Shown piece after piece: positions 26,001 through 49,967 of a stretch of 64,000 nt of DNA. Source of the DNA: Ascidiella aspersa (lineage: Eukaryota); contig OZ004612.1 in NCBI GenBank assembly GCA_963924565.1, positions 6,634,001-6,698,000 of the forward strand. The letters are read 5' to 3'. Both the position numbers and the translations under genes were made by a program. The number at the start of each line of letters is the position of its first letter. The stretch's first letter is position 1. The notes under the pieces are model-generated. The model searched no databases. It saw nothing but the letters and a program-made list of their open reading frames with translations, and had not been told where the DNA came from.

Positions 26001-29000
26001 TTATTAATAAGGGCTTATTTAATTCTTTTGGTATACTCGGGAAACAAAATGACACAAACGCAGATTTGACAGGGTCTGGCGCAGTGGTTCTCAACCTTTT
26101 TTCTTTCGTGGCCCATTTACGTTGCAAAAAAATTCTGACAGATTATTTATTCAACCTTGCATTAGTGAGATACTTGCGGCTGAACAATAAATTTACATTC
26201 CTTTTTATTCCCCCACTCCCCCAAGCCATTATTCCTGTAAAATTAAATATAATGACACAAATCGTCACGCTCATAACCAAATTGCCTAAGTCATTTTTTT
26301 ATGATTTTTGCCTAAGTCACGCTTTACCATCTAGATCCATGGAAAAAAGTGCCTAAGTCATTTTTTGCACAAGCGCATGGAAAATGACCTAAAACGACCT
26401 GAGCACTTTTTCTATGGATGGGGATGGTAGCAAGAAGTGACTGAAGCAAAAACTCTGAAAATCATAAAAAAAAAAGACTTAGGCAATTTGGTTATGAGCG
26501 TGACGAAACTAAATCTAGCTTGTTTAAATCGGTCTGTGCCCACCTCAAATGTTTTATGGCCCACTGGTTGAGAACCGCTGGTCTAGCGCTTTACAGAATG
26601 GATCTTTTTATTGTTGTTTTTTTATGACATCTTCGTGTACTTTGAGGTGGAAAACAGGGGTTGTAATAAATATGTAAATCTTTCTTTTTAAGAAAAGTCT
26701 ATTAAAATTGTTTTTATCTGCTTAGTAAGTGCGATCAAAACCTTTTTTAACTATTTTCTATTGTCTCGGCGATGACAGTTGTTCTGTTTTGCTTTTTATA
26801 TTAAAAATCGTCGAGCGAATTCGAGATCTTCGAAATGCTATAATTTCTTTGAACGCTTTTTTCATAAAACTGTTTGACAAACCTGGAAACACAATCAAAC
26901 TCGAACTGCTATGAAAGCTTATTTCCTGCAATTGTTAGTTCTAAATGTTCCTACCTTCTTTAAATATTTGCTCGAGCTCCTGCAGATGCTCGTGGTTCAT
27001 TTGGTCGTCCACTCGCTTCGAATGTACGCTCGCTGCACCCTTTTAGAGTAGAAAATAAGCTGTTGTGAAAAAACAACTGTTCATACACGATACATGTTAA
27101 TTTCGTGGTGGTGATCAAACAGACTCGACACATTCAACAGAAGTAAAGCAAAATACATGCGCGCATACGTTTTAAAGAAAACTTTTTTTTTCCTTTAAAC
27201 CTTAAATATCTCAAAAAAAACGTCGGGCGCCTAGCTTTTTTTGTCCTATACGTACACCTTAAAAAATCGTTTAAAAAAAAATTGAAGTTTTACAGCATTT
27301 GCTTCTCGCTATATTTTTTTCTGATTTGTGTTAATTTCGACAAAAAACCTTTATGTACATATGAAAGACACACACCTATGTGTTTAATAGCAACTGTGAT
27401 CTAGTCCCTCGGAAGCTGCTTTTTGACCGATAGTTACGCTTCCATGTCATTATAATACACCGAAAAGCTATCGCAGACTCGCCGAATCTGTCGATCAATA
27501 ATGCAAGCAGGGCAGGCTAGAAAGAAACCAGCCTGCAGTGAGGTTCGAACTCACAACCTCCGGTCAAGCCAGGACCGTCGCTCTACCAACTGAGTTACAG
27601 CGATATATATTGACAATATTAACTTCGTTACCTTTTTCGCCGGTTTCGAGATAGCAACATCTTCTTCGTGTGTTCCGCCCTCGTTAAAAGCAGCCGACTT
27701 TTTCGCTTTGAGCTGCTTTACGCTCGAACGTCGTCGTCTGTTGTAATTATCGCGAGCATCGGTGGACGAAGACCTTGGATGTTAAAAGCAAAGCTAATCA
27801 ATACTAGTCAAATGAATTCGATAAATTACATGTTGAAAATTAGCGATTTCGTATACTTGACGTGTTATATCGATACCTTATCTTTCGAAGGAAAACTTGT
27901 CACGAGTTTAAGAGTTGTAATCTACTATTTTTTATACATATATTTATTTTAGCCTACTGCCAGCTGCCACCCAGTTATCGCACCAGAACCGATACTACCA
28001 CTTGGCATCGGGTATAGCTTTCGATGATATCGGTCATCTCGAAAGTTAATAAAGAACTTTTCACGTTCGGAATATGCTACCTATACTTCTGTGTTGGCTT
28101 CGATATATTCCTTCTAGTAACATAATCATTTTAACATTCAAAATCAAATTAATGTTGTCATTTTACTAAAAAAATGTTGGTTTAATGGTGAAAATAACGG
28201 CCCAAATAGACGTTAAAAGCGACATGCTTTATTTTCAAACGTTTCGGCAAATTCTCATGCCATCATCAGTGATTCACCATTAAACTTATAAACAGATCCC
28301 TATATAGTGTTCTAATGTTGGTTTGATGAAACAAAAATCATTGCTAACCACCATAATGACGTAACAATGAAACATATATTTTTGCAAAACTAAAAACCTC
28401 CTACAGTCTCCCAGCACTATCCCCTGATTAAGAAAATTCCAAATAAAACTTTGGTGAAAGGAACAACAAAAATTATATCGCATGTTTGGACAGATGCCCA
28501 CCTAAAATAATAGCCTGGTGGTTGGCGGGCGTTTCTTACACAATGTATATCATCGAGATAAAGTTGACCAGACAGTAGTCATTTATTTAATAAAGTAACG
28601 TTTCTGCAGGCTTTGGTTTTAAAAATATTGTGTTTTTTTTCCCCGATCTTCAAAATTTTAAACCAACTTTATATTACCTATCATATCAAGTTCTGTCATA
28701 AACACCGTATAGTATATTTAGACGTTATAATGTATTTACCCGATGGCAAAATATTTTGGAAAGTTTGTGCACTTTTGCTGCCACGATTAAGTAAAAATAT
28801 AATATTATCAAAACATGTCTTAACAATCGAAAAACTTTTTTAAATGCTTTACGAACTACCGATTTCATCAGAAATTTAGATCTTAAAATTCATAGGACAT
28901 TTTTTTTTGTTCAAATATTTTGGCAGCAAATATTTAAAGCAGTGGTTCTTAACCTTTGGTAACCCGTCGAACCCCTATGTTATTCTGCAAGCGTTCATCG

Positions 29001-32000
29001 AACACCAAATTTTCGCTCAGTATTCGTTTCTCCTAGCAGCTGAAACTGGGTATATTTAACTTATGAACTTGCATTTATGCAGGTTAAATTGGCCAAAAAC
29101 CTTCAATTTATAACGTTACATGACACCTTGGTACATAAAAAAGATTCCAATTTAGCTTGAATAACAGCATTTATGTTTTAGAGGACATTCTCGCCGAACC
29201 CTTAAAAAAGCTGCGTCTCTAACCCCAAGGGTTCAATCGAACCCTGGTTAAGAACCACTGATTTAAAGGGAACGCAGTTCCTCACCGTTCCGGCTTACTT
29301 TTACCATTAGGTCCTTTATTATTTCAAGGAAGCAAACGGTCTGCTATATAGGTGGAGAGTCAATGACGGCTGCTTTAACAGGCTTTATGCGGAGTCAGAG
29401 TCGGCCCCGGGACCCGGCATAGTCGTTTTGATTTGCCATGGTCGGACTCGGGATTCAGGACTCGAGTAAAACTACCCGAGTGCCGAGTCCAACGTGCGCA
29501 TGCGCAGTACGAAATTTTAAATCTGATATGTAATGGCGAAATAGCATGGTGGATACTTTTAACCATTTATTGTGAGTGAATGATTGATATGACACCCCTT
29601 TGATTGGATTGCTGAAAATCCTCATTTAGTTCCATACATGGTTGAAAATTGAAATACAGACTGTAGAATCAGAGACGGACTCGTGACTCGACGAAATCGC
29701 ACATTTGGCCTAGTCGAACTCGGACTCGGGTTATTTTCTCGGTCGGAGTCGAACTCTGGTTATTTTTAACCGACTTCGCAGCCCTGCTTTATAAGTTTAA
29801 CCGAGATACAAGGTACCGACTTTATCTTAAATCCCTTTTTAAAAACTTAACAAAAAGTCGCATTAATAAGGCCAAATCCTCACCTGTGCGAATCCTGCTT
29901 TCCAGTTTCGCTGCTGCTGCTTCGCGTTTTTGGCAGCAAGCCAACTGACGAACGCTTTGATCTAACTGCTCCCAACTCGGACCCCGAGGTCGGCGGCAAC
30001 TCGATCATACTTTTATCCGAGAAACTACTCGCTTACTCGATCTCTATCGCCACAGCGGCGTGTGACCTTCGCTAAAACTTTAAGGTCAAATATTCGCCCT
30101 GAATTTTTGAGCAAGTGTTGGTTTTCTATATCGCTAGGAAATGGTTAAACCCGCCCGTTAACGTTTCTTACCCAAATAAAGACAAAAAGAGTAATATAGA
30201 TAAATCAAACAAGCTAATACACAAGTAGGTACCATTTTAAACTTTGCGAATAACTTAAATAAATTTGCGAAAATTTTGAAAATGAATAAAGAGGTATTCG
30301 AAAAGTTTAAAATGCTACCTACTTCTGTATGGGCTTTGATGTTCTTACTACGTCTCACTACAACCTCAAACCATTATGCATTGAAGATAAATTACCGTTT
30401 TGTTTTATTTACAAAACCTGAATTTAATTGCCCAATGTCGCTATTACTAACTTTATCATTGCAGTAAATGTTTTGGTTAAACATAAGCTATTCAACTGTC
30501 TTACATTTAAAAATATGCGGAAGTAAAAAGCAGATAACTGCGTTAAACATTTTTATATAAGGTTAAAATTGCCTTCTACAGAACAAAAAAATCCAATTTA
30601 TTAACACTTACCTTCGAATGAAGGTATTCTTCGCTATACTTGGCGTAACTTTTTCCTAAACCTGCAATTAAAACTGACTAACCCTACGCTAGCGAACAGA
30701 AACCTTACGCTGCAAAACAGAAAACCCATGGTGGCCTACTTTTAATTTAGAAAACGCACAAATAACCGTTGGAAATTTCCCCGCCTAATGTGGTAATTTT
30801 TGCCAATAAAAATGCCAAGGCAACAGACCTACGTTAAACCATTGTCGGTTATTGATCGTATTGTGACAAACAGGAGGCATTGTTACGAACAAAGCAACGG
30901 GTTTAGCCTTGACTGAACCTTGTATTTTTGGGTTTGAATTGCTACAGGAAAACCTCTTTATTTATACAAAACGACTGTGTTTTTTGATCATTTTTGTATT
31001 TTAAAGGAAATCGATTAGGTTATTTAGCGCTACTATTGATGAAATTTGATTTATATGTCCGAAAACTATAAAAAATTACGTTTAAAATGTAATCAAAGTG
31101 ATATGTAAAAAATGCCGTAAATATTATAGTTTTCCCAATTTAAAGAACTAATGATGATAGGATTTGGTTTATTTAACGATTGAAAGATAAGATCGTTTTT
31201 CATCCAGCAATAATATAAAAAAACATTGTAAAAGTTTATGGTTTGTAACTGAACTTTGATTCATTCACTTCGTTTAGTTTTAAATGGTTGGATTTACTGG
31301 GACTGATTTTGAGCAAGATTTCTGAAATATTTGAGAAAAAATTGCGCAAGCAATACGAAAACATGGCATAAGATTGTTTTTATTGTTTAGTTTCTCCTTA
31401 ATATTGAAGTAATTTCTATGGTAACACTGGTTATAAAGTGATTTGTTTTCGCTTGAGTTGCTTGAGTTTTAGTGGCACCTAAGCCTTGGAAAAACATTGA
31501 GCAGAAAATGTAAATGGCGGATAAACCAGAATTCGTCACAAGTCAATGTATATGCAAAATTATGAACTAAAGTTTTATGAACTAAAATCGAATTGAGAAA
31601 AGTTATTCCTTGTTTGTGTTTTACTTATGACTTTTGCCGCAGAAAGTAGCTTAGAAACACTGATATAAACTATCACAAATCTACTCATTTAAAGAAAATG
31701 TGTAAGAGAAACAACTGAACAAACACCTATTATTTAGGTTTGTGTAATACGAACTGATTATTTTCGTGTTGTTTTATCACAGCCGTTGTTTATTTGCAGC
31801 GCTGTTTTGTCGTCCATCTTCCTGAAAGACAAGCTGAACCGGCTTGGAAAGATCGGTGTTTTGCTTAGCTTGGTCGGATCCACCGTCATTGTTATCCACT
31901 CTCCGCGTCACGAACAAATCTCAAACTTCGCAGAACTGGTGGACAGTTTCACTGATACAGGTGGGATCAGTGTCGTAAACAAGTCATTTTGAAATGACTT

Positions 32001-34889
32001 AAGTCCAAGTCAAGTCATTTGAATAATTAACTTAAGTGCAAGTCAAGTCTATCGCAAAAATAACAAGTCAAGTCCCAGTCCAAGTCATCGTTTGCCCAAG
32101 TCCAGTCCCAGTCAAGTCATTATGAGAGCAAGTCAATTTCAAGTCATGTTATTGTCATAAAAGTAAACTGTTAAACTATTAAAATTGGTAAACTCGTCCG
32201 ATAATGAGCAACAATTTAACTAAAAATTTACACAAAGGAAATGTGCAGCAATAAATTGTTTAGTGTGCACAACTTGAGATACATTTTAATAAAAAACACT
32301 TAACTTAATTGCAAGATGTTTGACAGAATGACTCAAGTCCAAGTCAAGTCATTTGTCCAAAAGACTTAAGTTAAGTCAAGTCATTCTGGTCAAAATACTT
32401 AAGTCAAGTCAAGTCATTTTAAAACAGTGACTTAAGTGCACTTAAGTCAAGTCAGTGACTAAAGTCATTACAACACTGGGTGGGATAATTGTAGAAATGC
32501 GCAGTATTAAAGTTTTCCCTACTTCAGAAAATTAGTTGTTCTAAAAACGCCTTAAAATCGCGTTTTTCAGTTGCCTGATTGGCACTTCATATTGGGTAAA
32601 ATATCGGTATTCATTGGAGAAACGGCTATTAGTCAAATGACAGGTGATACCTTGAATACTTTTTTGCCATTTTAAGCGAAACGGTAACATCCCCATTGTG
32701 CTGCTCTATTCCGCGGTCCCGTCTTTTAGGTTTATTGGATCTTACTTTTTCAGCTTACAGCTTACAACTCACTAAAAAAATGGCAGCTCACTTGTAGCCT
32801 TTGTCTAGTTCAAATTATTACTTGACAATCACCCTGCAAGACAATTGCTAAAACTTTTTATAGTTTTATTCAAGGCCAGTATTCTTGCTCGCATGTCTAT
32901 TTGTAATAGAAATCAGTTTTGTTCAAAATTGCAAAAACTTTTGCGTCACACTTGAGAATGTCTCGAGGCACTCAGTTTAAAAAGCACTACAATCTAAGCA
33001 TTTCAGATTTTAGTTACCATTTTCACTTACGCTTATCAAAATACCCATTGACCTCATATAATAATACTCGGAAAGGTCACATAGGTCTACTCAGAAAGTA
33101 GAGGACTTTTATAGTAAATTTTTTTGTTTGTTCCTTTTATTCAAAAATGGATTCAATATAATTATATTCACATAAAAAACTCTGCTATAAAATCCCATTG
33201 GTGTTATAAACCCAGAAAAATGCTTTCTGCCGCTTTGGTAGTCCTACAATTGATACAGTGTTAAAATAAATTATTATTTAACCGGTTTCCTATACTTAGT
33301 GTTAAACTAGAACTTTTTACTTCGAGGTTTTGCGACACACCCGTCGATCAATTTTTGGCGAGTCTGTTTTGCACATAAATACAGTAAACCGTCGTTTCAA
33401 GTTGCCAAAATGGCGATTGATTAACCATTTGGAAGTATAGGCTTGTTTCGCAGAAATAATGTTTCCAGTCGTCCCTTTAAACCAACAAATGCACTCGTCT
33501 TACACTTGTGTATAAATTTGAAGTGATTGAATGTTTTAAATCTGTAAAATATGAGGTGTTACCTTAAAATTATTCAAGTCTTGTTTTAAATTTTGTACAC
33601 AGTGGCCAACATATTAAAGCAGAACGCAGTCAACGAGTCAAAACGAAAAATTCCGATTTGGTGCAAAGTTATTTAAATTTAACCAAGTTCTCAATATATG
33701 CGTAAATGGTCAAACATATATATATACAATTCGAAATCACGCTTAATTGTTTTGTTTCCAAATCTATTTTCTGCCATTAAAACGTTTGAGAATTATCTGA
33801 ACCACCTCCTATCACAACTATAGACTTACAAGTGAGAATACAGCTCAATGTTGTGCAATATTTGTTGAAAGCACGAATAAGCCAATCATATGGCGCCACG
33901 TCACAAAAGACGCACACCACAGAACTAACTTTTTTTTTTCAAACTTGCCCTGAAGCACACTAAACACGGATCTATTCATGATCTTCAAAAGAAAGAAAGT
34001 GTCCCAAATAATAGAAAAAAGATTCATTCTTTTATTAGCAAACGTTTCGGCCGAACTGATGATGGCAAAAGTACTTGCCGAAACGTTTGCTAATAAAATA
34101 ATGAATCTTTTATCTATTATTTGGACCACTCTCTTTCTATTGAAGACCCTGAAGAATCTTGCGCATTTTGACATTATACAACGAAGCCAAGTAAACCCTT
34201 GTTTTATTTTAGTCCTATAACACCAAAATGCTGTGACAGGCAATGCTTTCTTGTGGTTTCGAGCGAAATGTTTAGAAGCTTACACGAACGGACACGCAAT
34301 TTTGTGACTCCAAATTAACAAAACGAACCACTAAACTTGTTCCTTTGTTAATGCGTCGTCCCTATTTTTTCTTCCAGCGTTCCTTGTCTACTGCGCAGTT
34401 CTCATTGCTGCAACCCTTTACCTGATAATCGACCTTGCCCCGCGCCGCGGCCAACACAACCTACTGGTTTACATCACCATTTGCAACATGGTCGGCGCCA
34501 TGTCCGTCCTTTGCGGCAAGAGCTTAGGCATCGCCCTCAAGGATGCTTTGGCGCCATCACCGGCCAGTGCCCCCCTGAAAATCTACCTGCACCCCCTCTT
34601 CTGGCTACTTATAGTGGGACAAGTCTTGGGCGTGGTCATTCAGATTGTGTACTTGAACCGTTCGCTTGCCGTTTTCAACACAAGCGCAGTTATACCAGTT
34701 CAGTACGTCTTCACCAACCTCTTTCTTGTAATCGGCTCTATCCTTCTCTTTCGCGAGTTGTCCTCGATGAGCGGGGAGAGTTGCGTAGGCCTGCTGTGCG
34801 GTTTTGTAACGGTCGTTGTCGGAGTTGTGCTGCTTAATTCTTTCAAGAGCGCCCGTCGGATCGACGACGATGCACCCCTGGCTTTGTGA
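5082..34889 (+). CDS. NIPA2: NIPA-family magnesium transporter (NIPA2-like), 5 coding exons, about 327 aa
   Basis: Exons 5082-5235, 5746-5811, 6283-6373, 31800-31960, 34378-34889; GT-AG introns in phases 1,1,2,1. Motifs GSSFILQKKGL, GYL..WWLGMLSM.GEVINF.AY..APAILITPLGAL, LGKIG.LLS.GST..VIHSP, LVYITIC, QIVYLNR.L..FNTS match the NIPA family. Orthology to NIPA2 versus NIPAL not tested. Confidence 0.92.
5312..5435. repeat. Imperfect hairpin / small MITE in NIPA intron 1
   Basis: ttaatgtggcacatttgggttgatatttaaccatc ... gatggttaaatattaactgagatgtgccaaattaa. Confidence 0.6.
7117..30008 (-). CDS. EF-hand and WD40-repeat protein (WDR49/EFCAB8/WDR64/WDY-like), about 22 exons and 1390 aa, nested in NIPA intron 3
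   Basis: Phase-consistent exons on -: 30008-29884, 27773-27632, 27039-26955, 25828-25722, 24894-24721, 23770-23446, 22081-21807, 21321-21212, 19927-19727, 18585-18318, 18043-17905, 16656-16551, 15224-14863, 14045-13902, 13338-13081, 12599-12376, 11216-11004, 10471-10277, 9529-9428, 8841-8731, 8148-8033, 7519-7117. EF-hand FMKVDNNCDGTVDWDEYLSYM. WD repeats VTGSRDCEVRVWNPY, SISKDKNVRVWD, VTGGEDSMVCLWD, ASGGVDGSVRLW. Exons at 8-10 kb are less certain. Confidence 0.88.
11213..12165. repeat. Degenerate ~125-bp tandem repeat overlapping the WD40 exon 17 acceptor
   Basis: Recurring gagcgctgcag.gaacaagtggaagggtttgaaatttacac...aatgctgtaaaagttactct units; a further copy at about 10110-10170. Confidence 0.8.
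12609..12960. repeat. Palindromic dispersed repeat (aaagcccatacagaagtaggt family)
   Basis: Inverted arms around ttattcgaaacg; other copies at about 28070-28130, 30190-30380 and 49445-49522. Confidence 0.75.
16821..17064. repeat. 32-bp minisatellite, about 8 units
   Basis: CTCGAGGAACCCCAGTGTAATAATTTCACT(A/G)G at 16821, 16853, 16885, 16917, 16949, 16981, 17011, 17043. Confidence 0.95.
17573..17831. mobile_element. hAT MITE
   Basis: CAGTGGTTTTTAACC...GGTTAAAAAACCCTG; TSD CTTTAAGC/CTTTAAAC. Confidence 0.7.
18966..19148 (+). mobile_element. tRNA-derived SINE
   Basis: A box TAGCTCAGTTGG and B box GTTCGAACC in a tRNA-like head (18998-19072), followed by a tail shared with other copies. Confidence 0.85.
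19951..20275. mobile_element. hAT MITE
   Basis: CAGTGCTTCTCAACC...GGTGGAAAAGCACTG; TSD CAATAAGG/CAAAAAGG. Related remnants at about 21553-21663 and 60686-60905. Confidence 0.75.
20469..20644 (-). mobile_element. tRNA-derived SINE with TSD
   Basis: Near-identical reverse copy of 18966-19148, flanked by ATACTCTAGCAAAG at 20455-20468 and 20645-20658. Confidence 0.88.
24330..24680. repeat. ~130-bp tandem repeat, three copies
   Basis: caaaa.gcaact.acagaa.at recurs near 24381, 24510 and 24643. A separate ~170-bp duplication lies at about 24940-25110 / 25200-25385. Confidence 0.7.
26082..26580. mobile_element. hAT MITE containing a nested TIR element (26263-26505)
   Basis: Outer CAGTGGTTCTCAACC/GGTTGAGAACCGCTG with TSD GTCTGGCG/GTCTAGCG; inner ~30-bp TIR CGTCACGCTCATAACCAAATTGCCTAAGTC. 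Confidence 0.8.
27456..27599 (-). mobile_element. tRNA-derived SINE, 5'-truncated
   Basis: Same head and tail as the 18966 copy. Confidence 0.8.
28235..28272 (-). ncRNA. Minimal type-I hammerhead ribozyme motif (Penelope/retrozyme-like)
   Basis: On -: TCA-CTGATGA-T-GGCA(TGAGAATT)TGCC-GAAAC-GTT-TGA, within repeat 28181-28309 in WD40 intron 1, sense to that pre-mRNA. Confidence 0.7.
28940..29260. mobile_element. hAT MITE
   Basis: CAGTGGTTCTTAACC...GGTTAAGAACCACTG; perfect TSD ATTTAAAG. Confidence 0.88.
29379..29786. mobile_element. Degenerate hAT-like MITE with GGACTCGG/GAGTC subterminal repeats
   Basis: CAGG..TGCGGAGTC...GACTTCGCAGCCCTG; TSD eroded. Confidence 0.55.
30811..30824 (-). promoter_or_regulatory. 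Candidate RFX X-box upstream of the WD40 gene
   Basis: GTTGCCTTGGCATT on -, about 150 bp upstream of a possible non-coding exon 30661-30612 (ttgcag...GTAAGT). A second X-box-like ATTTCTATGGTAAC lies near 31412. Confidence 0.3.
31968..32478. mobile_element. hAT-type MITE rich in AAGTC repeats, inserted at the NIPA exon 4 donor
   Basis: TIRs CAGTGTCGTA/TACAACACTG; 8-bp TSD GGTGGGAT at 31960-31967 and 32479-32486. Confidence 0.85.
34056..34090 (+). ncRNA. Hammerhead core inside a ~190-bp palindrome (33970-34158)
   Basis: CTGATGA-T-GGCAA(AAGTAC)TTGCC-GAAAC-GTT. Stem I is poor, and the upstream arm is the inverted copy of the downstream arm. Confidence 0.55.
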
Positions 34890-35513
34890 GCCTCATTTCG
34901 TTTGTTTTTGGACCTCTTTGTCTTAGTTTTGTGTGTGTGTGTGTGTGTGAGGCGCGGAATTGTGTAGCGATGCGGAATGTTTGTCCGTTTGACTATATTT
35001 TTGTTCCCTGCAGCTCAATTGCGATTTTGTCTCGACTTACCTTTCTACGGTATTGCAAAAGTGAATTTGTTTTTACAAAGTATTCGAAGCGTTTCCGTGG
35101 TAGTTTTAACTTTTGAAGCTATACTTGTTATTTGACCTATGACTGTGCTATACGTTTAATTTTACATTATCTTTGCGCGACGTGATTCTTATTGACTGGC
35201 GTTGCCTCGTATGCAAAAAACTTTATCCCTGCATTGTCGATAAATTTGCTGTGTGCAAAAGCGATACAAGTCGAGGGATGGTTTATAACGACTCTATTTC
35301 CTTTTTTTAAATGCAGTTGTTTCGCTAATGCATTAATTTTGATCAAAATAACCCCGCGTCAACCACTAGAGTTGCCTAACCTTGTTAGTTTTCTACTTAA
35401 CCTTTGGTTTTTTTACCTTTGTATGTTCAGCGCGTAATTGCGCCTCAACTATGAAGCGTTTGTCGATCTTAAAATCTTTTTGTTACCTGCAGCCAATCAC
35501 GAGTTTAACGTAA

Positions 35514-35816
35514 AGGCCCGTTTACACTACAGCTGCACTGAGCTGCACTGAGCTGCACTGGGCGTGAAATTGTTTTCACTACAGCTGCACTGAGCTGCGC
35601 TGGGCGTAAAAATCGCTCCAAACGTAACGTGTTTCTATAGCTGCACTGGGCTTGAGTTTTGCAAAGCGTGAAAATCGCTCCAAAGCGTATTTTTAAGCTA
35701 GCTGCAGCTGCTGCACAGGGCTTGAGTTTAGCAAAGCTTGAAACGCTCGCCACAATAGAATTTAAATGCAAATTACGCTTTGCTCAGCTCAGTGCAGCTG
35801 TAGTGTGAACGGGCCT
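35514..35816. mobile_element. PIF/Harbinger (Tourist-like) MITE
   Basis: TIRs AGGCCCGTTTACACTA / TAGTGTGAACGGGCCT; 3-bp TSD TAA. Confidence 0.85.
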
Positions 35817-37184
35817 TAACTGTTTAACGTTACTACGATATTGCAAAAGTAGATCATTTTACACTAGTATTCAAAGCGATTAATTTGTGGTGTTAAAGTT
35901 GAAGCATTATTTTTGTGCCTTTATTTTTCTTTTGTATTATTATTCTTTGTCCCCGAGTGACTATTACCTAAACGATTGATTTTGGTTTTGCATGCAACAA
36001 ACTTTATATTAATTTGACTTTGGCTGCCTGCTTCAGTAATATGTACTTTGTAAGTCGTTACTATTTTAGAAAAACATTTGTAGGACTAACTTACATTTTT
36101 ACGTGCGAATTAATCGTTTTTGCAAAATAGAGCCAACATTGCGTAAAACATTTGGCATTATTCGGAACTTCTTTACTTTTTAATCGGTTGTTGCTGACAT
36201 ATTGTTATCTTTTGTATGGTATTTAATAAGTATTTGCAGGTCCAATGCTCATTATCTACCCCAAAGTGACCCGAGTATTTGCGCTTATTTTGGTTGCTAT
36301 TCCTACAACCTCACAAGCGTGCCACAGTAAACCTTATTATGTGACTCATGGCAGTCCCCCTTTTTCGTTCAGGTTCGATTTTAAAGCTCGTTTTTATTTC
36401 ATTGGGACTGATTCCCTACGTCATACGTACAATTGGCAGAAAAAGTGATTTAGTTTTTCGACTTTGATGTCGAGTATATTTTAGTTGCTTTGTATAGTGA
36501 GCAATGCAAAATTTTGTTTAGATTCCTGTCCAAAATACATTTTCGAATTGTTTCTTTTGATATCGTGAAGTCCTTGTTTATTTCTTAATCATTGCGTTCC
36601 ATATCAGTCGATTTTCATCTTTTGCACTAAAGTACTTTGAGGTGAATTTGTCTCTAGTATTCGATCAACCCTTTTCATTTTTATTTGAAAGCAAAAAAAT
36701 AGAAGAGATATGTTCTCGTCTTATCGACATCTTTATACGCTACAAATTTCGTGTTCCTTATGTTTTGTATTGCAGTAAATCTGTGTTCTAGTTTGTTATA
36801 CCAATGGACGCCGGATCATGTATTACCTAGACCTATACAGACGGGTTCGGACTGGGCGTCGAACTTTTACTGAGGCTTGCACTATTTCAAGTTTTATCGC
36901 TTCGTAATCGCCTATAAGACCTTATTTATCTTGTTGATGGTCATTTTGTTATTTTGTTTGAACATACATTAATCACCTTTTAAACCAACTTTATTGTTCA
37001 CCGGTTAGTAGCTTGTATTTGTTTCCTGCCGGGAGTATTTCGTGTGGAACAATTTCGCCAAGTTTATGCTTGACGCGATTTACGCTCAATTCGTCCTATC
37101 TTGGTTTCGACACTGAAGTGTTTATTAACTTTCGCATATAAACCTCAGAACTTCACCGCCGGTCGTGTCTTGCGTTGTGTAGGG

Positions 37185-37501: not shown

Positions 37502-38599
37502 AGTAAAGGTCAAAAGGCTACAGCTTAGTTTGGATAGACAAGTACAGTGTGTTGTTTAAGATATACTGCTCTTAAATTTTTTAATTTCAAGCACATTTCT
37601 TGCAAACAAAAAATGTGTATATATTGTCACCCTGCTTAGAGATCGGGGTTTTAATTATTTTAATAACAACTATACACCAGATTCGGGAAAACTAGAATTT
37701 CTTTCATGTTTTTTAAATAAGATTTGAATTATCATGATAGCTTTTAGATTAGGTCAATTACCGCATTCTTTTTCAGGCTGTATATTTCGCCGCGCATTGC
37801 TGAAAATTTAAACGAAAATTATATTAGAACTAGCAATGTACAAGTTATCAAAAATTAAGCCTACTATTACAAGCACATTGCTCTGTCGAACTAGAAAACT
37901 AAAATTATCTAGTTGTTCAAGTCTGCTCTGTTTCTAAATAAAAAAAATGAGAAAAAAAAACGAAAAATCTAAAAAACTGAGAAACTACACTTTCTTTAAA
38001 TCCACTCCAGTCCGAACACACTGCCAGTCAGTGACGTCAGTTACGCGATGAGCATTAAGTAAAAAGTCTAATTTTTTAACGGAATAACCATCAATTTGTT
38101 TTTAAACATTTTGCCCATCCCTTGTTTAATCAAATTCACTCGAAAACTAACGCAAACTAAGGCCGATATATAAATGACATTTCGTCATACTTCAATTTAC
38201 CTTTATTCTTAACGAGAATATGGCCTATAGTGAAATATTTCGGCTAACGTGTCACACATATTTTTCCTTTCAGCTTTCTTCGCCTACTGTTCCATTTTTT
38301 TGTAATAATATTTGCAGAACGGCTTCCTGTGTGCGATTTATGCTTTATTTTGCATGATATCGCCAATATACTTAACTGTAGGGGAGATGTGGGACCAGTC
38401 ACGTTTGACGTTTTGCATCTGCAGGATTTATTTGCCTCGTAGAAGGGATTTAGAAGTCTTAGCACGAACTTTAATCTATCCTTCAACATACCACAGCATT
38501 TAACTTAAAATGCCAAAAGAGAAAACTTGTTTATTTTGCATGCCAAAAAAGCTACTCAAACATTTCCAATAACACGTCGTCCCTCTTTTTTCCTCACAG

Positions 38600-39116
38600 C
38601 GTTCCTTGTCTACTGCGCAGTTCTCATTGCCGCCACCCTTTACCTGATAATCGACCTTGCCCCGCGCCGCGGCCAACACAACCTACTGGTGTATGTTACC
38701 ATTTGCAACTTAATGGCGCCATGTCCGTTCTCTGCGGAAAGAGCCTGGGAATCGCCCTCAAGGAAGCCCTGGCGCCATCACCAGCAATAGAAGAGGCGTA
38801 CAGCACCCCCCTGAAAATATACCTGCACCCCCTCTTCTGGGCGCTTGTTATCGAGTTAGTCTTGGGCATTGTGCTTCAGATCGTTTACCTGAGTCGTGCG
38901 CTTGCTTTGTTCGAAACCAGTAAAGTGATTCCTGTCCGTTATGTGTTTACCAACTTTTTCGTGGTTATCGGATCCATCCTTCTCTTTCGCGAGTTGTCCT
39001 CGATGAGCGGCGAGAGTTGCGTTGGCCTGCTTTGCGGCTTTGTAACGGTTGTTCTCGGCGTTGTGCTGCTTAATTCGTTTAAAGGCGACGATGACGACGG
39101 GAAATTAGTGCTATGA
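38600..39116 (+). pseudogene. Duplicated NIPA terminal exon (5b) with a 1-nt frameshift: alternative last exon, pseudo-exon or assembly error
   Basis: Same phase-1 acceptor (cag|CGTTCCTTGTC) as exon 5a. AAC TTA AT GGC GCC versus AAC ATG GTC GGC GCC shows a 1-nt deletion near 38714. The downstream frame is open to TGA at 39116. No duplicate of exon 4 was seen between the two copies. Confidence 0.8.
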
Positions 39117-39363
39117 GTGTGAGTGTTATCTTTACTTTTTGTATGTATAGAACCATGAAGCTTTTGCCCATGTTACTTGCAGCGCTTTGTTTCTCGCAAT
39201 TGAGTCACGATTTTACCTCTACCTGCCTTTTGCCTTACGGAATTGCCAATTAGGATTTCTATTGATTAATATTTGATTCACATTTATATTGATTATTGTT
39301 TGATGCACTTTAATGGTGAAAATAGCAGCCCAAATAGACGTAAAAAGCGACATGCTTTATTGT

Positions 39364-39401
39364 TCAAACGTTTCGGCAAATGCTCATGCCATCATCAGTG
39401 A
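39364..39401 (-). ncRNA. Minimal type-I hammerhead ribozyme motif at the apex of a ~150-bp hairpin element
   Basis: On -: TCA-CTGATGA-T-GGCA(TGAGCATT)TGCC-GAAAC-GTT-TGA, flanked by ~46-bp inverted arms 39309-39354 and 39416-39461. Confidence 0.72.
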
Positions 39402-40514
39402 TATAAAGGCCACATCATGTCGCTTTTTACGTCTATTTGGGCCGTCATTTTCACCATTAAACTTATGAACAGATTCGTATATAGTGATGCATAGTTTTGT
39501 ACTATGCGACCTATAATGGCCCGCTAAAATTTTGACTTTCGAAGTGCAATCCATCACCTAATATTTACAACACGTTCTGCACTTGTGAATTTTATCTGCA
39601 ATATATTTCGACCTTATAGCCTTATTGTTCTTTTTTAGGATTTTACTTCCGAAAATTTTGCCTTGGATTGCCGATTGCAGTTTTTGTTTACGTCTTACCT
39701 TAAGCTGTTTAATTTCCAGGTTTTTGCATTTACTCCTGTGAACAAAGTAATACTTATATCGAATGGTACCTTTTCCATATTTGCGGCTTTTACGTACTAA
39801 GCGACAGATATTGTCCTGTCTTTGAAAGACATTATTTTCTTAACAATCTTTTCTTCCACCTCCTTCTATTTAGTTGATTTCCAAATCCGTATTTTTTATG
39901 TGTTGCACTAAACGCTAAAATATTACACATTATAGTTATATTCGATTGATTTTTATGTTAAGTGTCGTCATAACGTGGATAACGACACATTAAAGTTACG
40001 CGTTTGTTTTTTTGCAATAACACCTATATGGCAACTTGTGTTTTATCTTCTTAAATTCCCTTAACCTGAAACTGCCCTCAGTTAACTAGCGTTATAAAGG
40101 AAGCGACCTTCCTGCGTATACTTGCTTTTAGACAAATCAACGCCGTACTTAAATCTGTTTACTGAAATATTAAACAATTTACAAAACAAATTTATAAAAT
40201 CAAGCACTATTAGTTTATACAGGCACAATGCGTGTCGATAAAGTCTCGACTTCTTCAGATAGAACAAATTGATTGATTAGAAATCAAATTAAGAGCAGAT
40301 TGAACGATTACAAATTAATTTATTTATTTTTACCTAAGTTTTCTACAGAAAATATTTTGTCATAGGAGGCCTTCGACAGCCTTATCGTCATTTTTAGTCA
40401 CATTCGGTTTTCTCAGGTAGGTGTTTAGCGATTTCGACAGCTACACCTATACTATTCATACTTTAAATCCATTTTTGGAATGGAGAGAAATTGACTCAAA
40501 TTTTCTTTCGATTA

Positions 40515-43500: not shown

Positions 43501-46500
43501 AAACACGTTACGTTTTGGGGCGATTTTCACGCCCAGTGCAGCTGTAGTGTAAACGGGCCTTTACCTGAACCCAGAATAGAGAAATGTAGCGTCACAGCAA
43601 CAATCTCGCAAGCTCCGTGGTCGTTTAAGGCCAAGTCGTGGAAAGTATTCGACACGTGAAAAATAAGTAAGGCCACAGTCAGATTTATCTGCACAATGGT
43701 TCGTTCGTTTCGTATCCGCTTCCTCACTCGGTTGATCACGACCAGCGTCAGTACGAGTGAAAGAATGGACACGACCTCGCATAAGTAGGTCAGAACCTGA
43801 AAAATGTTTGCAAATTTAATGGATTTATATAAATTATTTTGAAGGCGGTATTTATCCGAAAGGTAGTATTGTGCAAATTAGGGAAAGTGTAAGCGTTGGG
43901 AAACTTCGTATCAAACATTCAAGCTTATAAAGCAAACGTTTATACATCTACTGTGTAGAAGCGGTTTTCTTGTTAAGAATAGTTTTAACAATTTGAACTT
44001 ATTTACCCAAATGTTAAACATGACTGCCAACACAAATATACCCTGGCTATGATTATCGAATCTCACATGGAGCCTATTATAATTACGACATAATTAAATG
44101 TTTGAAATATTATCTTTTTTACACTAGAGGGCTAGCAACTATATTTAAAAAAATGTTAATAACAACAATTGGTACACGTAACGCTTTACACCCTTAAACA
44201 ATTTTTATACATACTTGTTTGAAGAATGATCCCAGGTTAACCAGCGTTGCCTAAAATCAGCATAAGAAAAATGAACTTACCCGCGCCTGATAAGGCACCA
44301 CTCTGCCGGTGACCGAAAGCAGAACTGCGAATATGGTTGTGTGGTTTGAAACGCAGCGGACCTCGTCGTTGCAAACTTCCGACACGTGCATTCCAAAGCT
44401 GGAGAAGCGGGCCTTGTCCTCGTCCCAGTAAACGCACTTGTGCTCCACCGAGTGAGGCTGAAACCTGCCGCTGTACTTGTCCTTTATGCCAGCTAGCAAC
44501 TGACGTGCTTCGTCGACACTCACTTTGACACCGAACCTATAGCGGTAGCGGTAGATTTTAAGGTTGGCTCGTTTGCTGTTTTTTCTATATCGTGTTTTGT
44601 TTCTTTTATATTTTTTTAAACATCGCAAATTCGCAACTTTTGTTTTTTGAGTCGCTTTGAAGCTTAATATGTTATAATATAACAACAAGAGTCTGGGAAT
44701 GAGTTTACCAATATAGAATACTGTTTTGGTAACTCCAGTAAAGGCAATATGATGGATTTGTTTAGGAAACAAGTGTAGAACATTTCTGAGACGCCGACTT
44801 CACACCAAAAAATGTTAACTGCCTTTGCTGTTCGCAGCATTTTAAACTTACCAATACTCTTGGACGCAACATTTCAAGAAAACTCTAGGGGCCTTGGCCT
44901 GATCCGTTAAGCGTCTAATGCTTATACATTAAAAAAGTTTGGTTTGTACACTAAGTTTCAAGCTCAGATTGTTGAAACGAAACTCAAAAGTCAGCATTTT
45001 TTTATCTATTTCGTCCTCACCTGACGGTGATGTTTTCAATGTGTCTTTCAGGAGTTATCTCTAACAGAGTACCGAGCGGTGCCTCTCTAGTTACTTCAGA
45101 GCGCCCAATATTTTCATTGCCTTCTACCAACTCCAGATCCGCGACCAGCTGGAGGGTCTTCACTGTTGCCATGAAGCTCTCGTCGGTGTCCACCCGCAGC
45201 GAGATTTGATCCTTTGACCCTAGGACTTGTTCGCGCGTTTCGTGCCGCGAAAAAGTAGTTCTCTCCGATGTTTTGACCGTAATGAGCTGCTTAAGGTTTT
45301 TCTTTGCTGAAACTAAGATTTAAGCTGGTTGTTTTTGTTGTAGGATTACATATTCTTTAATAGATTTCACAAATGCTTTAAAGAAAACCTAGATCGAATG
45401 ATATATATGGTGTTATCGACAAATTTTCTTGACCTATAACCCTAAAAATGGCGTTTTGTTAATGTGGCCACATAGTGCGAATAAAACATGTCAGTACAAC
45501 AAGAACCACTTATGGTTTGCGAACAGCTAGTGAAAAAGTATATCCCAGGGGAATATTATGCAACTTCCAACGTTAATTGAATTAACAAATGTGAGTAGTA
45601 TAGTGGTCCCATACGACAAAATGTTGAATGACCAGGTTTGTGATATTTTAAAGCGAAGAACAAAGATATGCTACTTTCTATGGTTCAAATTGAAACCGTT
45701 TCAATTACTTTGTTGGCGATCTTTGATAGACGCTCGAACTGCTGGTAACGCTCCATAAACTTCCGGGTGATTTTGTTTTGATATTAATTGCATCTTTTTC
45801 GTAGTAGAAGTCGCTTGGTGCGTTGATCTATTGGTTAATAGTTGGTTGGATTCAGTTTCGAAACTGGTGGTTTGTGTGTTTCTTGTAGTCGCAGCATTTT
45901 TTTGAGAAGAGGTTGCTGTTGTTGTTGGCTGTTTTCTTGTTGTTGTTGTTGTTGTTGTTATAGTTGCTGTTGTTTCCTCTCTCTTGGTGCTTTCACTTGC
46001 TGTAGCTATCTTATTTCTATCAGATATTTGTGCTGTTGGTTGTAGACAGTTGGACGCCGACTCGCTGCCTTTGCATACTGAAAACACAACAGTGGTTACA
46101 TTAAAGTTTATTGCAGTATTAAAATTCCTGCTAATGCTCTACAAAACGTTTGCGTGTCATCTTTAGTAGCTATCGGACACCAATATATGTTTTATCTTTT
46201 ATATTTTGGTATTGCGGTAGGTAGATTTAAGTACGGTAAGTGTTCAGTTAATGCTTCTTGATCATCTCGCTCGTACATCAACGTGTAAAACATACGTCGA
46301 GTGGCTGTTTATCCCTTAACGTGTTGAACAAACGAACAGGATGCAGCAACGATGCTTTGGTCATTAATCGATCTGCTATACTCTGAGCCTGTCTAGCTCA
46401 GTAGGTAAAGTAACGGCACTGATTTCGCCAAGGTTGTGAGTTCAAACCTCACCGCATGCTAGTTGTTTTATTAGCCTAGCCTTGTTGGCAGAATAATCCT

Positions 46501-49500
46501 GATTAGGCCGATTGATCCCGGTAATGGCTTTCCGAAGGTACCCTTGTATTATAATAAGTATACTTTCATGGTTGGTCATTACTACTTCAGCAGGGCTGAT
46601 CACATTATATACACTCCTGTGGATTTAATGATTTGGTTTTATGTGGCTGTTGATCCCCTAATATGAATTTGCATGTAGGAATAGGGTATGGTAGGCAACG
46701 GTACTATGGTCGTTCCACGACTTGCACCCCCCTGAGCCTGTGTAGCTCAGTTTGAAAAGCGACGGTCCCGCTATGTCCGAGGTCGTGAGTTCGAACCTCA
46801 CTGCAGGCTATTTTTTTCTAGCCTGCCTTTCTCACTATAATCCTGATTAGGCCGACTGATTTCAGGGGAAACATTTCCGAACTACCCAGTACATATGTAC
46901 AGTAGGGTTGTTCAAACAAACACTTTTATGTCAAATTTCAGTGAGGAAGCCATTTTTCGTACAAAACAGCTTAATAAATGTTGTTTAAATGTGACATTTG
47001 TACCATAATTACTCACTTTTTTACTGCGAAACAGATTTATTTATAGCTATTCAATTGCAAAGCTATGCAAAAAAAAAAATTTTTAGGGGGAGTTTTTTTT
47101 TTTTAGGGGGAGGACAATTTATTTTTTTCAAAAATTTTAGCCTAAATCTGAATTTTCAAATTGACGTAGCACGGTCAATACTGAACCAAACGTAGTTAGA
47201 TTTGGTTTGTGGGGTTTTTAGACGCAACCTAACAATTCCAGGGGGTCCCCACTGAAATTTGACAAAAAAGTGTTTTTTTGAACAACCCTAATGTACAGTG
47301 ACAAACAAGGTATGAAAATTTGTGATATTTTAAAAAGGCCGATGTAAGTTGCTTAAAGTCATATTGCATGTTGAAGTCAATGCATGTTAACCGTATATGA
47401 TGTTTTTACACTTTACCCAAGATCAGGCTTGTGTTCAAAAATCTGTAAATTAAAGGTAATTTTTATTTTCTTATCTGCAAAACAGGTAAAACTGGCCATG
47501 ATGTCCAAATTTAATTAGGACTAAATTCTAAAACAAGCGTACGTCTTTAGGTAGGCAAACCCAAACATAGTATAGCATATGTAACCCTGGACCGTTCAAG
47601 TGAGCTGTGCACGTTAGATAGACAAACAAGTTGATAAACGACCGTGCGACTGCTTCCTATGGTACTACAACAACTCAGTTTTAAATTGTACACTCGCGCG
47701 CTTTTCAGTCAATGCCTTGCATGCAAGCGCTGCTTGATAATCCTGTGTTCTTCAACATCACAAGTATCTTTAGAACAAGAACCCTTACCTTTGTAGCAGG
47801 CGAAGTACTTCAGTTTCCTGTAGTTGTCGCAAGCTATGTCGTTCCACCGCCAACCGAATCTTGCCCTCTTCTCCACGCAAGCCTCAGCTGAGTGAGATGG
47901 CTGACCCTCGTACCAGTTCGTCCAGCTTGGAGCTCTACCGTCTTGCCATTCAAATGCACTTGCGTTGGTCGTGGAACGGTGCAGGCCTGAAATGAAAAGT
48001 GTTTTTTGCTGATTTGTGGAAAGGAACTCTGTAGAAATTTCTGCTGGTTAACTGAATTCTTTCTTGAAATGGTTAGACTTTGGAACATTTCAGCGTGGTT
48101 AATTTTTCATTGTATATTAAAGTAGCAGTAACTGAATTAAGGTCGGTTATTTGGGCCACATGCATGAGGCTGATTTTGGATATTTATATGGAAAAGTTGT
48201 CTAGCCACAGATTGTCAAATCAACTATTGGAATTTGTTCAAGCAGAATTTTTAGTTTAGAACCGCTTCGGTGAAGTTTTTTCACCTCTATTTTCGATTTT
48301 TTTTGCCTTTATCTATAATTCGTAATGCAGTATGTTAAACCCGATTTGTGAGAAACAAGCTTCTTTTTTTAATAAATTGTTTTTATTCACACTATTGGAT
48401 ATTATATTATTACATTTAAATTAAGTTTTAGTGCTTAGTAAAAAAGGCATATTCGTAATTTTCGACCGAGCTATTTGTTTTTCGAAAGGCTCTTTCGCAC
48501 AAGGCTAGTAGCCTATGGTGCTATGGGCAGCTACATAAGAAATAAACGGCCAATTTTCTTGTTCATTCTCTATTTTTTTAGGTAAATTGTTGTAAATACA
48601 TGGTATAACAACAAAACAAATTATAAACTAATATAGGCTTCGATCGAATGTATTAGAGGCATCCATATTCATGGGCATCTAATATCGGTTTCAAAACGAT
48701 AGAATCGGGCATCCGTATTTATGGGTATCTAACGAAACACAAACCTATCCAAACTCCGGACTCTGGAAACGATCGCAGTTTAGCTTTTTGGATGACGCAA
48801 TCCAGAATCTTCTCGTCTGCCACGGAGTCCACTCTTGCAAGCTCCATGTTTTTGTCGCGACACAGCTTTCTCGCAAGTTCAAATGTACCACGCTGTGTGG
48901 TGACTTCGTAGCATTTCGTCGATATATTGGTGCTGTCATTTTGCCCTGAATAGCAGCAGATCACTCATTATGAGGTTTGCATTTGAAAGTATGTTGTATA
49001 TCTATCACACCAGGCAAACTCTGTACGGATATCAAAAAATCGCATGTTATTTCGCCATCAATAATCTATACATAATCTGTGGAAATCAGCTCCAAAAATA
49101 ACAAAATTGTACAACTGAGATTAACTAGACGAATTAAACAAAATTGACATATGCGAATCGTATTTGTAACCCCCCAGTATGGAGTGGCAAATGCGTTAAA
49201 CATAATGACTTTTGCTACAAACCTGTATTCTTCGGCACAAGTAGCTTTTAAGTTAGAAAAAGTTATATTCGATATCTTTCATTTCTAAAATAATAGTTTA
49301 ATCCGGTATCGGATATTTACAAAAATCACATAAGAGTTCACTAAACAAAAACACCACGTTTTCAGACATCGTTTCATTTAGTTTTTGTATGCTCCGGTTA
49401 AAAAAAAAAAAATTGTTTGCTCCGGTTTAAACAAAAAAAAAAGAGCATAATGATTGGAGGTTGTAGTAAGACGTAATAAGAATATCAAAGCCCATACAGA

Positions 49501-49967
49501 ATTAGGTATCATTTTGAACGTTGTAAAACTAATAATAAAGTAACCGATAAAGTTAATTAAGATTGGTTCACTTGTTTTCCTCTTCCATTTACCTATATTT
49601 TATGTTCAGTTAAGACTAAAATTTTCATTCGCCGCGGACCCTCTAAAAGTTCTAGTTCATGTTAAAACATATTAAATATGCAATTCCTTGTTGCTTATTG
49701 AAGTAACAACAGGTTAATAACATTCTATTGTAACCTTTCCGAACACAGTCATTTTATTGTCTCCAAAAATTAAGTATAAATTGTGGTCAGCCAATATTTT
49801 TATTAACTTGATAACGTTGTGATTAGATTATTTAAAAAAATAAATAAAACACAGGCCTGATTGAGCTACGCCAAGTTTGTTTACTGACCTTTGGTTACAG
49901 TAGCCACTATTCCAAGAAGGCACATAATTTGCGAAAGGGTGGTGTGGCGAACGCTGCACATTATCAT
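40515..49967 (-). CDS. Adhesion GPCR with C-type lectin domain, mucin stalk, GPS and 7TM (paralog 1), 10 exons, about 815 aa
   Basis: Exons 49967-49889 (signal peptide), 48945-48745 and 47986-47789 (CTLD: VWIGL..WQDG..W.NW..GQPS..CV..WNDIAC), 46077-45709 (Thr-rich), 45312-45021, 44536-44281 (GPS CVYWD..FSSFGM..RCVSNHTTIFAVLL), 43796-43565, 42411-42219, 41733-41459, 40867-40515. Family-B 7TM motifs WMLVEG, GWGFP, CW, NGLQG. Confidence 0.92.
43317..43560. mobile_element. PIF/Harbinger MITE of the same family, in the aGPCR1 exon 7 donor
   Basis: Same TIRs as the 35514 copy, opposite orientation; TSD TTA at 43314-43316 and 43561-43563. Confidence 0.85.
46385..46890 (+). mobile_element. Two diverged tRNA-SINE copies (about 46385-46520 and 46705-46890)
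   Basis: Head gagcctgt.tagctcag...gtgagttc.aacctcac; both share a different tail ataatcctgattaggccga. Confidence 0.75.
46903..47290. mobile_element. hAT (TAGGG-terminus) MITE
   Basis: TIRs TAGGGTTGTTCAAA/TTTGAACAACCCTA; perfect TSD ATGTACAG. Confidence 0.88.

Follow-up and report, generated by a model that had tools for sequence, protein, structure and literature searches.

The inverted hairpin at positions 39309-39486 of the window (the whole 64,000-nt stretch of Ascidiella aspersa DNA analysed here) is very probably a heavily 5'-truncated, head-to-head insertion of a Penelope-like element (PLE) whose coding copies lie elsewhere, likely the product of a single event with both nicked strands as primers. 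As an element it is ordinary and belongs to a known kind of PLE insertion.

Structure of the hairpin and its hammerhead motif

The sense arm (39309-39417, minus strand) contains the last ~19 nt of the 3' UTR, the hammerhead and the first 15 codons of the element ORF (39309-39353, minus strand, ATG at 39353). Once translated, these codons show homology to the start of the intact family-B protein described below; the arms, which the original prediction had regarded as non-coding, are the opening 15 codons of the element ORF. The sense arm was identical to a longer copy (L132) at 104 of 108 nt and 93.5% identical to L123, a copy bearing reverse transcriptase (RT) and endonuclease (EN) sequence, and it stops at the inner RT start site without a tail. 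The inverted, 5'-truncated arm (39416-39461, plus strand) repeats the ORF start and meets the sense arm in a 2-nt overlap junction at 39416-39417. The predicted ~46-bp inverted arms were recovered as 39309-39354 and 39416-39461 (46 nt, 93% complementary). The inverted arm alone continues into the PLE tail (39462-39486, plus strand), which comprises about 25 of ~29 nt, supplies the next ORF codons and had escaped the original description. The sequence of arm end plus tail had 149 exact matches genome-wide. A candidate 7-bp target-site duplication was read from the sequence (right copy 39301-39307, left copy 39485-39491, both given on the minus strand, the tail end being overlapped by 2 nt); it is weak and falls inside the range of shuffled-pair controls. 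Contigs from two DNA runs span a junction of the insertion, and no empty allele of the site was seen in three contig sets, which drop variants.

On the minus strand, CUGAUGA runs from C3 at 39398 to 39392 and is followed by one extra U, stem II (GGCA/UGCC with an 8-nt loop) and GAAAC-GUU, which ends at 39367. This minimal type-I core (39367-39398) was assigned by motif and by cross-family covariation, and its predicted cut lies 3' of GUU at 39367. Stem I (39355-39408, minus strand) is formed by UCA (39401-39399) with UGA (39366-39364), an internal loop, and CUUUAU (39408-39403) with AUAAAG (39360-39355). Both helices were present in MFE folds, and most genome copies have CUUCAU where this copy has CUUUAU. 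The intact core and closing stems were located exactly where they had been predicted. Helix III can form in a dimer only, by pairing of the ACGU palindrome. The window has three such exact cores, at 39398 (minus), 28269 (minus) and 34056 (plus).

The whole hairpin folded at -82.6 kcal/mol (z = -10.9), a value equalled by 0 of 200 shuffles. The ribozyme region by itself folded no better than shuffles (z = -0.7), so the evidence for the hammerhead consists of motif, copy number and covariation. In the monomer, a fold that mispairs the core lies 2.7 kcal/mol below the hammerhead fold, and in a cofold of two copies the lowest-energy form was not the active dimer. The hammerhead scan suggested with the original prediction, run against Rfam, reported no hammerhead at E up to 5; sub-threshold Rfam miRNA matches were obtained on two such hairpins.

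Covariation was scored in 10 sequences from five related families of this genome. Two-sided changes were found in 6 of 7 stem pairs, and 92.9% of cells were paired versus 11-43% in slid controls. The core was constant across the five families except for a U3-A8 swap in family C, seen at L156 2631-2674 and at 12607-12962 of the window. At the level of sequence, this covariation indicates that the hammerhead fold is selected in mobile lineages. Conservation within insertions was assessed on 31 inserted arms picked regardless of core (60 loci, 51 arms, 20 duplicates dropped). Mismatches amounted to 14/397 in the core and 39/1747 downstream (p = 0.15), the core count being inflated by two rows that are junction artefacts. 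The core of the stubs was no better kept than its flanks, which is one of the two outcomes that the original prediction had named as telling against it. Judged by these counts, the stubs decay neutrally and the hammerhead there is not under selection. The assignment to minimal type-I hammerheads of Penelope-like origin, with the inverted duplication as a PLE trait, was supported.

Genome-wide copies, coding parents and mode of insertion

The 32-nt family-A core pattern was searched in the 308.6-Mb genome with the reversed pattern as control. Exact matches numbered 272 for the family-A core and 140 for the family-B core, both lower bounds on copy number, and 0 for the reversed controls. Anatomy was recorded for the first 100 of the 272 family-A matches in genome order, with both-arm matches merged, and yielded 63 units with an inverted arm (median about 207 bp). 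The 30 best genome matches had sharp outer ends common to all and differed in their middles. Each unit begins after the flank with the reverse complement of the element end, including about 29 extra nt, and passes through the junction into a forward hammerhead copy that stops 29 nt short and is followed by the flank repeat. The tail belonged to the inverted arm in 41 units and to the sense arm in 19, while 3 units lacked it and 0 had it on both arms; a tail of about 29 nt on one arm only was thus seen in 60/63. Target duplications of at least 8 bp flanked 44/63 units versus 4/400 shuffled (mismatched) pairs. Junctions were almost all distinct, and ahead of the core each of 54/54 short-armed copies had its own sequence, only 2 pairs being nearly identical.

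Copies extend upstream over a continuous range of lengths, up into an ORF with RT and GIY-YIG endonuclease. In L123, the family-A end sits about 240 nt past the stop of an ORF in which RT motifs precede a C-terminal GIY-YIG endonuclease. This ORF aligned in pieces with residues 101-837 of the intact family-B protein at 43-56% identity, and its coding sequence is broken by frameshifts and a ~1.3-kb insert. L236, also of family A, runs in frame past the tail and is 63% identical to family-B residues 15-63. The high copy number and the linked RT/GIY-YIG ORF that the original prediction proposed to look for were both found, in the 272 exact cores and in L123. No intact family-A ORF was present among 125 scored of 654 candidates, so family-A stubs may have been moved in trans. 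A Pfam search of a 318-aa family-A fragment returned nothing at E up to 0.01, and the identification of family A accordingly relies on motifs and tblastn matches to family B. From two copies a 35-nt upstream pattern was built, which matched those two alone; the upstream extension in these copies was rejected as a parent, as it was junction sequence.

Family B has an intact ORF of 837 aa (RVT_1 by Pfam, E 1.6e-9) that starts at an ATG inside the hammerhead, so that arms and tail represent the first ORF codons. The family-C ORF matched RVT_1 and, weakly, GIY-YIG (E 7e-4, below the Pfam cut-off). GIY-YIG was detected by Pfam only in L156, in this weak form, and elsewhere the motif was read by eye. 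A single ORF with RT and C-terminal GIY-YIG endonuclease is present in the parents L123 (broken), L154 and L156 and not in the stub. Ahead of the ORF there is a direct repeat of the 3' end, 1038 bp in L154 and 1232 bp in L156, in keeping with a pLTR derived from a partial tandem and containing hammerhead and ORF start. L154, L156 and the L123 fragments have a CCHH finger in the EN, a C-terminal EN and no CX2-5CxxC linker finger. By the clade criteria of PMC8557442, these sequence traits point to elements of Penelope/Poseidon type. A DKG motif was read by eye in L154 and L156, where L123 reads DKD; no named reference proteins were among the 120 homologues listed.

According to the original prediction, the hairpin belongs to a non-coding, non-autonomous retroelement family of ~180 bp. 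On such a view, the whole hairpin would be a retrozyme- or MITE-like unit that undergoes transcription and copying in one piece. The sharp common outer ends, the hundreds of copies with a median of about 207 bp and the lack of an intact family-A ORF among the candidates scored would agree with such a unit, and so would one locus (L321) that has a head-to-tail repeat with TATA box and hammerhead. Junctions can also change after insertion, as described below. Arm lengths, however, are continuous up to the ORF, the tail occurs on either side, the upstream strings are distinct in 54/54 copies, and the arms of one unit (L091) come from two subfamilies. Animal retrozymes are moreover defined by tandem arrays of 170-400-nt units (PMC7229834; bioRxiv 10.64898/2026.07.22.740005), from which the locus differs. 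Copying as one fixed unit is therefore very unlikely, and the idea of a self-propagating ~180-bp family did not hold for copies of variable length that reach a coding region.

Several arrays were observed alongside these copies. At L321 (G000:C4:5245060-5245460), a family-A insertion consists of an inverted arm and a 128-bp head-to-tail repeat of about 2.3 copies; the repeat holds TATA box, hammerhead and ORF start, and the locus is possibly a starting form of a retrozyme. L157 (G000:C9:23.485-23.493 Mb) contains 3-4 head-to-tail family-C units of about 2.67 kb that are 99.8% alike; two of its ORFs have a common changed C-terminus relative to L156 and a third ORF is shorter. L071-L078 (G000:C1:37.57-37.73 Mb) form a tandem array of about 20-kb units with one family-A stub each. 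L129 has an uninterrupted 1068-aa frame (2743-5946, minus strand) with leucine-rich repeats and a TIR-like end, which by eye resembles a Toll-like receptor.

Duplication, one-arm tail, inverted arm, junction, hammerhead, ORF start, coding parent and unique flanks and junctions were observed directly. An insertion scheme that would produce them can be modelled on the PLE of the anole (PMC11167929), whose enzyme cuts and extends both strands and begins synthesis at two internal sites, one on each side of the tail. The endonuclease would nick both strands about 8-14 bp apart. Priming from one DNA end would use the outer RT start site, that from the other a site about 29 nt deeper inside, and these unequal start sites would place the tail on a single arm. 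The two short cDNAs would then join by micro-homology. The hammerhead would ride as a passenger, with selection in mobile lineages and none in stubs.

As proposed for Adineta, the inverted arm could instead arise from one cDNA that folds back and primes itself, which would leave the PLE origin unchanged. The arms of a unit agree at a non-CpG subfamily site in 40/43 cases, a result equally compatible with fold-back copying and with two primings on a single RNA. Short palindromic extensions occur at start-site junctions, and in PMC3846280 self-priming was deduced from junction palindromes. A fold-back does not readily match a tail that lies on exactly one arm, either one, in 60/63 units. The arms of L091 differ at four linked sites and derive from two templates, and the anole enzyme extends both strands in vitro (PMC11167929). 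We regard self-priming as unlikely and prefer priming by both nicked strands. Within the ~20-kb array, L077 shares its insertion site with L072-L076 and L078 and has a different internal junction. Since these are paralogues of one insertion (compare L073 with L077), some junctions were remodelled after insertion.

Arm ends and the start of the template RNA

The arms of family A ended preferentially just before the core. As many as 46/100 ended at most 7 nt from it, 35/100 at exactly -4 or -6, and the end rate per nt was 0.080 at -1 to -7 versus 0.012-0.033 further up. A TATA box lies at -35, so the hotspot is 29-31 nt past TATA. In family B, TATA lies at -40/-42; here 17/77 arms ended at -8 to -10 and 2/77 at -4/-6, in 77 of the 140 core matches and with four lengths corrected by hand. 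The shift of the hotspot between the families was significant (p = 1e-8). Sampling by core pattern is blind to arms that stop inside the core.

A G stood just before the start in 20/35 start-site junctions versus 11/54 others (p = 6e-4). The preceding G doubles as the opening base of a palindromic extension, and extensions of at least 3 nt were found in 6/35 versus 0/54. Single inserted bases, read by eye, were five G and two C. The excess of G would fit cap copying as known for L1 (PMC9341517) and equally a short palindromic extension.

Inverted arms that ended within 2 nt of the cleavage site numbered 2/62 versus 3.1 expected. Cleaved RNA was considered as template and rejected for want of an excess of arm ends at the cut site. 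A splice or trans-splice acceptor behind the hotspot was likewise rejected: family A has no AG before -4 or -6, and in family B an AG ends at -15, yet no arm ended at -14. In RNA run X5, of which about 6% was read, we found hardly any reads on the family-B ORF body, no pile-up of ends and no usable start, end or cleavage signal.

The hotspot that follows TATA, together with the lack of ends at the cleavage site, suggests uncleaved, capped RNA as template. It is reasonably likely that many stubs, including the copy at 28180, are run-off copies of such RNA, with its first base 4-6 nt ahead of the core. They would arise through the short distance, about 90-120 nt, between the RNA 5' end and the RT start sites. 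The copy at 39309-39486 reaches -19 and therefore came from a longer, read-through RNA. We also favour, by a narrow degree, a strong-stop-like origin for the commonest PLE insertion, in which synthesis on the capped, uncleaved mRNA starts at whichever copy of the two RT start sites is nearer the 5' end, runs off at the cap after about 100 nt and the product is joined to a second cDNA, sometimes that of another RNA.

It is possible, if rather doubtful, that the hotspot, instead of recording where transcription begins, marks the point at which RT stalls on reaching the ribozyme fold or a bound protein. At -8, the family-B peak falls where stem I may end, as read from the sequences, and run X5 gave no RNA signal for the start. 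Against stalling, the hotspot holds 29-32 nt from TATA in both families and lies on pyrimidine-purine steps, the G excess fits the cap copying known for L1, and the longer stem I of family A extends to -10, beyond the hotspot.

If the start-site reading holds, stub ends offer a cheap genomic test of the template RNA and of prior cutting by the hammerhead. If the strong-stop reading is true, stub ends would locate PLE promoters at single-base resolution in any genome, argue from in vivo events that the template is not a hammerhead product, and account for the abundance of minimal hammerheads. No title or abstract among the papers listed in the accessible literature described run-off stubs at start sites, and none joined hammerhead, ascidian and Penelope.

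Genomic surroundings and comparison with known systems

The window contains at least 10 PLE stubs from four families. The second family-A stub (28174-28324, minus strand) has a sense arm at 28273-28180 that begins exactly 4 nt before C3. It was predicted as a near-identical copy at 28181-28309 that had lost most of one arm; the copy exists (28180-28313), while the short arm is probably its original form. The short inverted arm with full tail (28274-28313) and the 11-bp target duplication (28174-28184 and 28314-28324) indicate that it was probably made short-armed. The family-B stub (33948-34154, plus strand) has 77-bp arms, a hammerhead at 34056-34087 and an 8-bp duplication, and its hairpin at 33957-34146 is the end of family B. 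Family C is represented by two neighbouring stubs with inverted arms (12607-12962, plus), a decayed inverted stub (30187-30379, plus) and a single-arm stub (49443-49522, minus). By blastn only, family-D stubs were placed at 9562-9687 (plus, about 80% to L143, with a short inverted arm) and 18592-18763 (minus), and a family-D-like stub (72%) at 58570-58692 (minus).

Other repeats were noted in the window. Short inverted repeats at 5315-5432, 26262-26506, 35510-35820 and 46896-47297 do not match the five PLE families and are probably MITEs. A tRNA-related family, likely a SINE, occurs at 18966-19134, 20480-20648, 27456-27597 and 46356-46809 and includes one inverted pair (96%, 1345 nt between). 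A 32-bp minisatellite of about 8 copies lies at 16788-17088.

Exons of NIPA (plus strand) and of an adhesion GPCR (minus strand) were identified by Pfam, which bears out the predicted location of the hairpin between the two genes with the ribozyme in GPCR sense. The last NIPA exon is duplicated (38590-39116 versus 34378-34889). In the second copy, the frame is shifted by a 1-nt deletion near 38713; there the X2 contig has an extra base and X1 is the same as the window, so that the deletion looks like a polymorphic frameshift allele.

The element lies about 1.0 kb beyond the GPCR stop. An AATAAA at 40328 is 187 nt past the stop and about 0.84 kb ahead of the element. In about 6% of run X5, the flanking bins had no RNA reads and the last GPCR exon was likewise almost uncovered. 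In this library, which suits small circular RNA poorly, reads on the element itself came from both strands, and 194/212 were only partly placed, mostly running into the flanks of other copies. It had been suggested that the ribozyme could cleave GPCR read-through transcripts. Co-option of this copy for that role would be in keeping with its sense orientation about 1.0 kb past the stop, its intact core, the contigs from two DNA runs that bridge the junction and the lack of a visible empty allele. We consider it highly improbable, as the copy is one among at least 10 PLE stubs in 64 kb, a density at which one intact core beside a gene end is expected. Its core is no more conserved than the flanks and is mispaired in the lowest-energy monomer fold, and AATAAA lies well ahead of it. 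In addition, single minimal hammerheads were uncleaved in vitro and dimers cleaved weakly, as reported in Cervera 2014 (PMC4209133), and the anole ribozyme needed its protein (PMC11167929). Read-through cleavage is thus unsupported.

For annotation, such hairpins resemble new ribozyme elements or microRNA precursors, yet they are PLE ends. The stub copies are a natural record of an unsettled transposition mechanism.

The insertions resemble Pen2a_Av of Adineta (PMC3846280; scheme in PMC8557442), which has an inverted truncated copy, an optional 30-40-bp tail and an 8-10-bp target duplication. In the scheme for EN+ PLEs of the same papers, the pLTR includes the start of the ORF, which the tail extends by about 10 codons; a TATA box with an Inr-like site and junction palindromes are also shared. 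The unit studied here differs in being merely a pLTR end with its inversion, of about 180 bp, and neither paper, in its accessible text, tallies 5' ends at the start site copy by copy.

PAc, the Poseidon element of Anolis carolinensis (PMC11167929), is alike in that both strands are cut and extended and two internal RT start sites within the ORF start lie on either side of the tail; like family B, it has its ORF start at hammerhead stem II. Its main template is uncleaved RNA and its targets are AT-rich. Family A, by comparison, has no open frame from the ATG within the ribozyme, and its ORF starts just downstream. PAc is known from biochemistry, whereas the families described here are known from sequence alone.

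Minimal hammerheads of metazoan PLEs (PMC4209133) likewise have an extra base between 9 and 10.1, G10.1-C11.1 and a palindromic 15.2-16.2. They are mostly single motifs of truncated PLEs, with opposite-strand pairs 100-700 bp apart. The U3-A8 core variant is shared by Schistosoma Cercyon elements and family C. Stem II is 4-5 bp here versus 7-8 bp in the Schistosoma motifs, and families A and B differ in having GUU at the cut site. Animal non-LTR retrozymes (PMC7229834; bioRxiv 10.64898/2026.07.22.740005) are similar in their type-I hammerhead, small size and PLE pLTR ancestry. Retrozymes consist of head-to-tail tandem units that give rise to circular RNA, whereas the locus at 39309-39486 is single, arranged head-to-head and has a coding parent.
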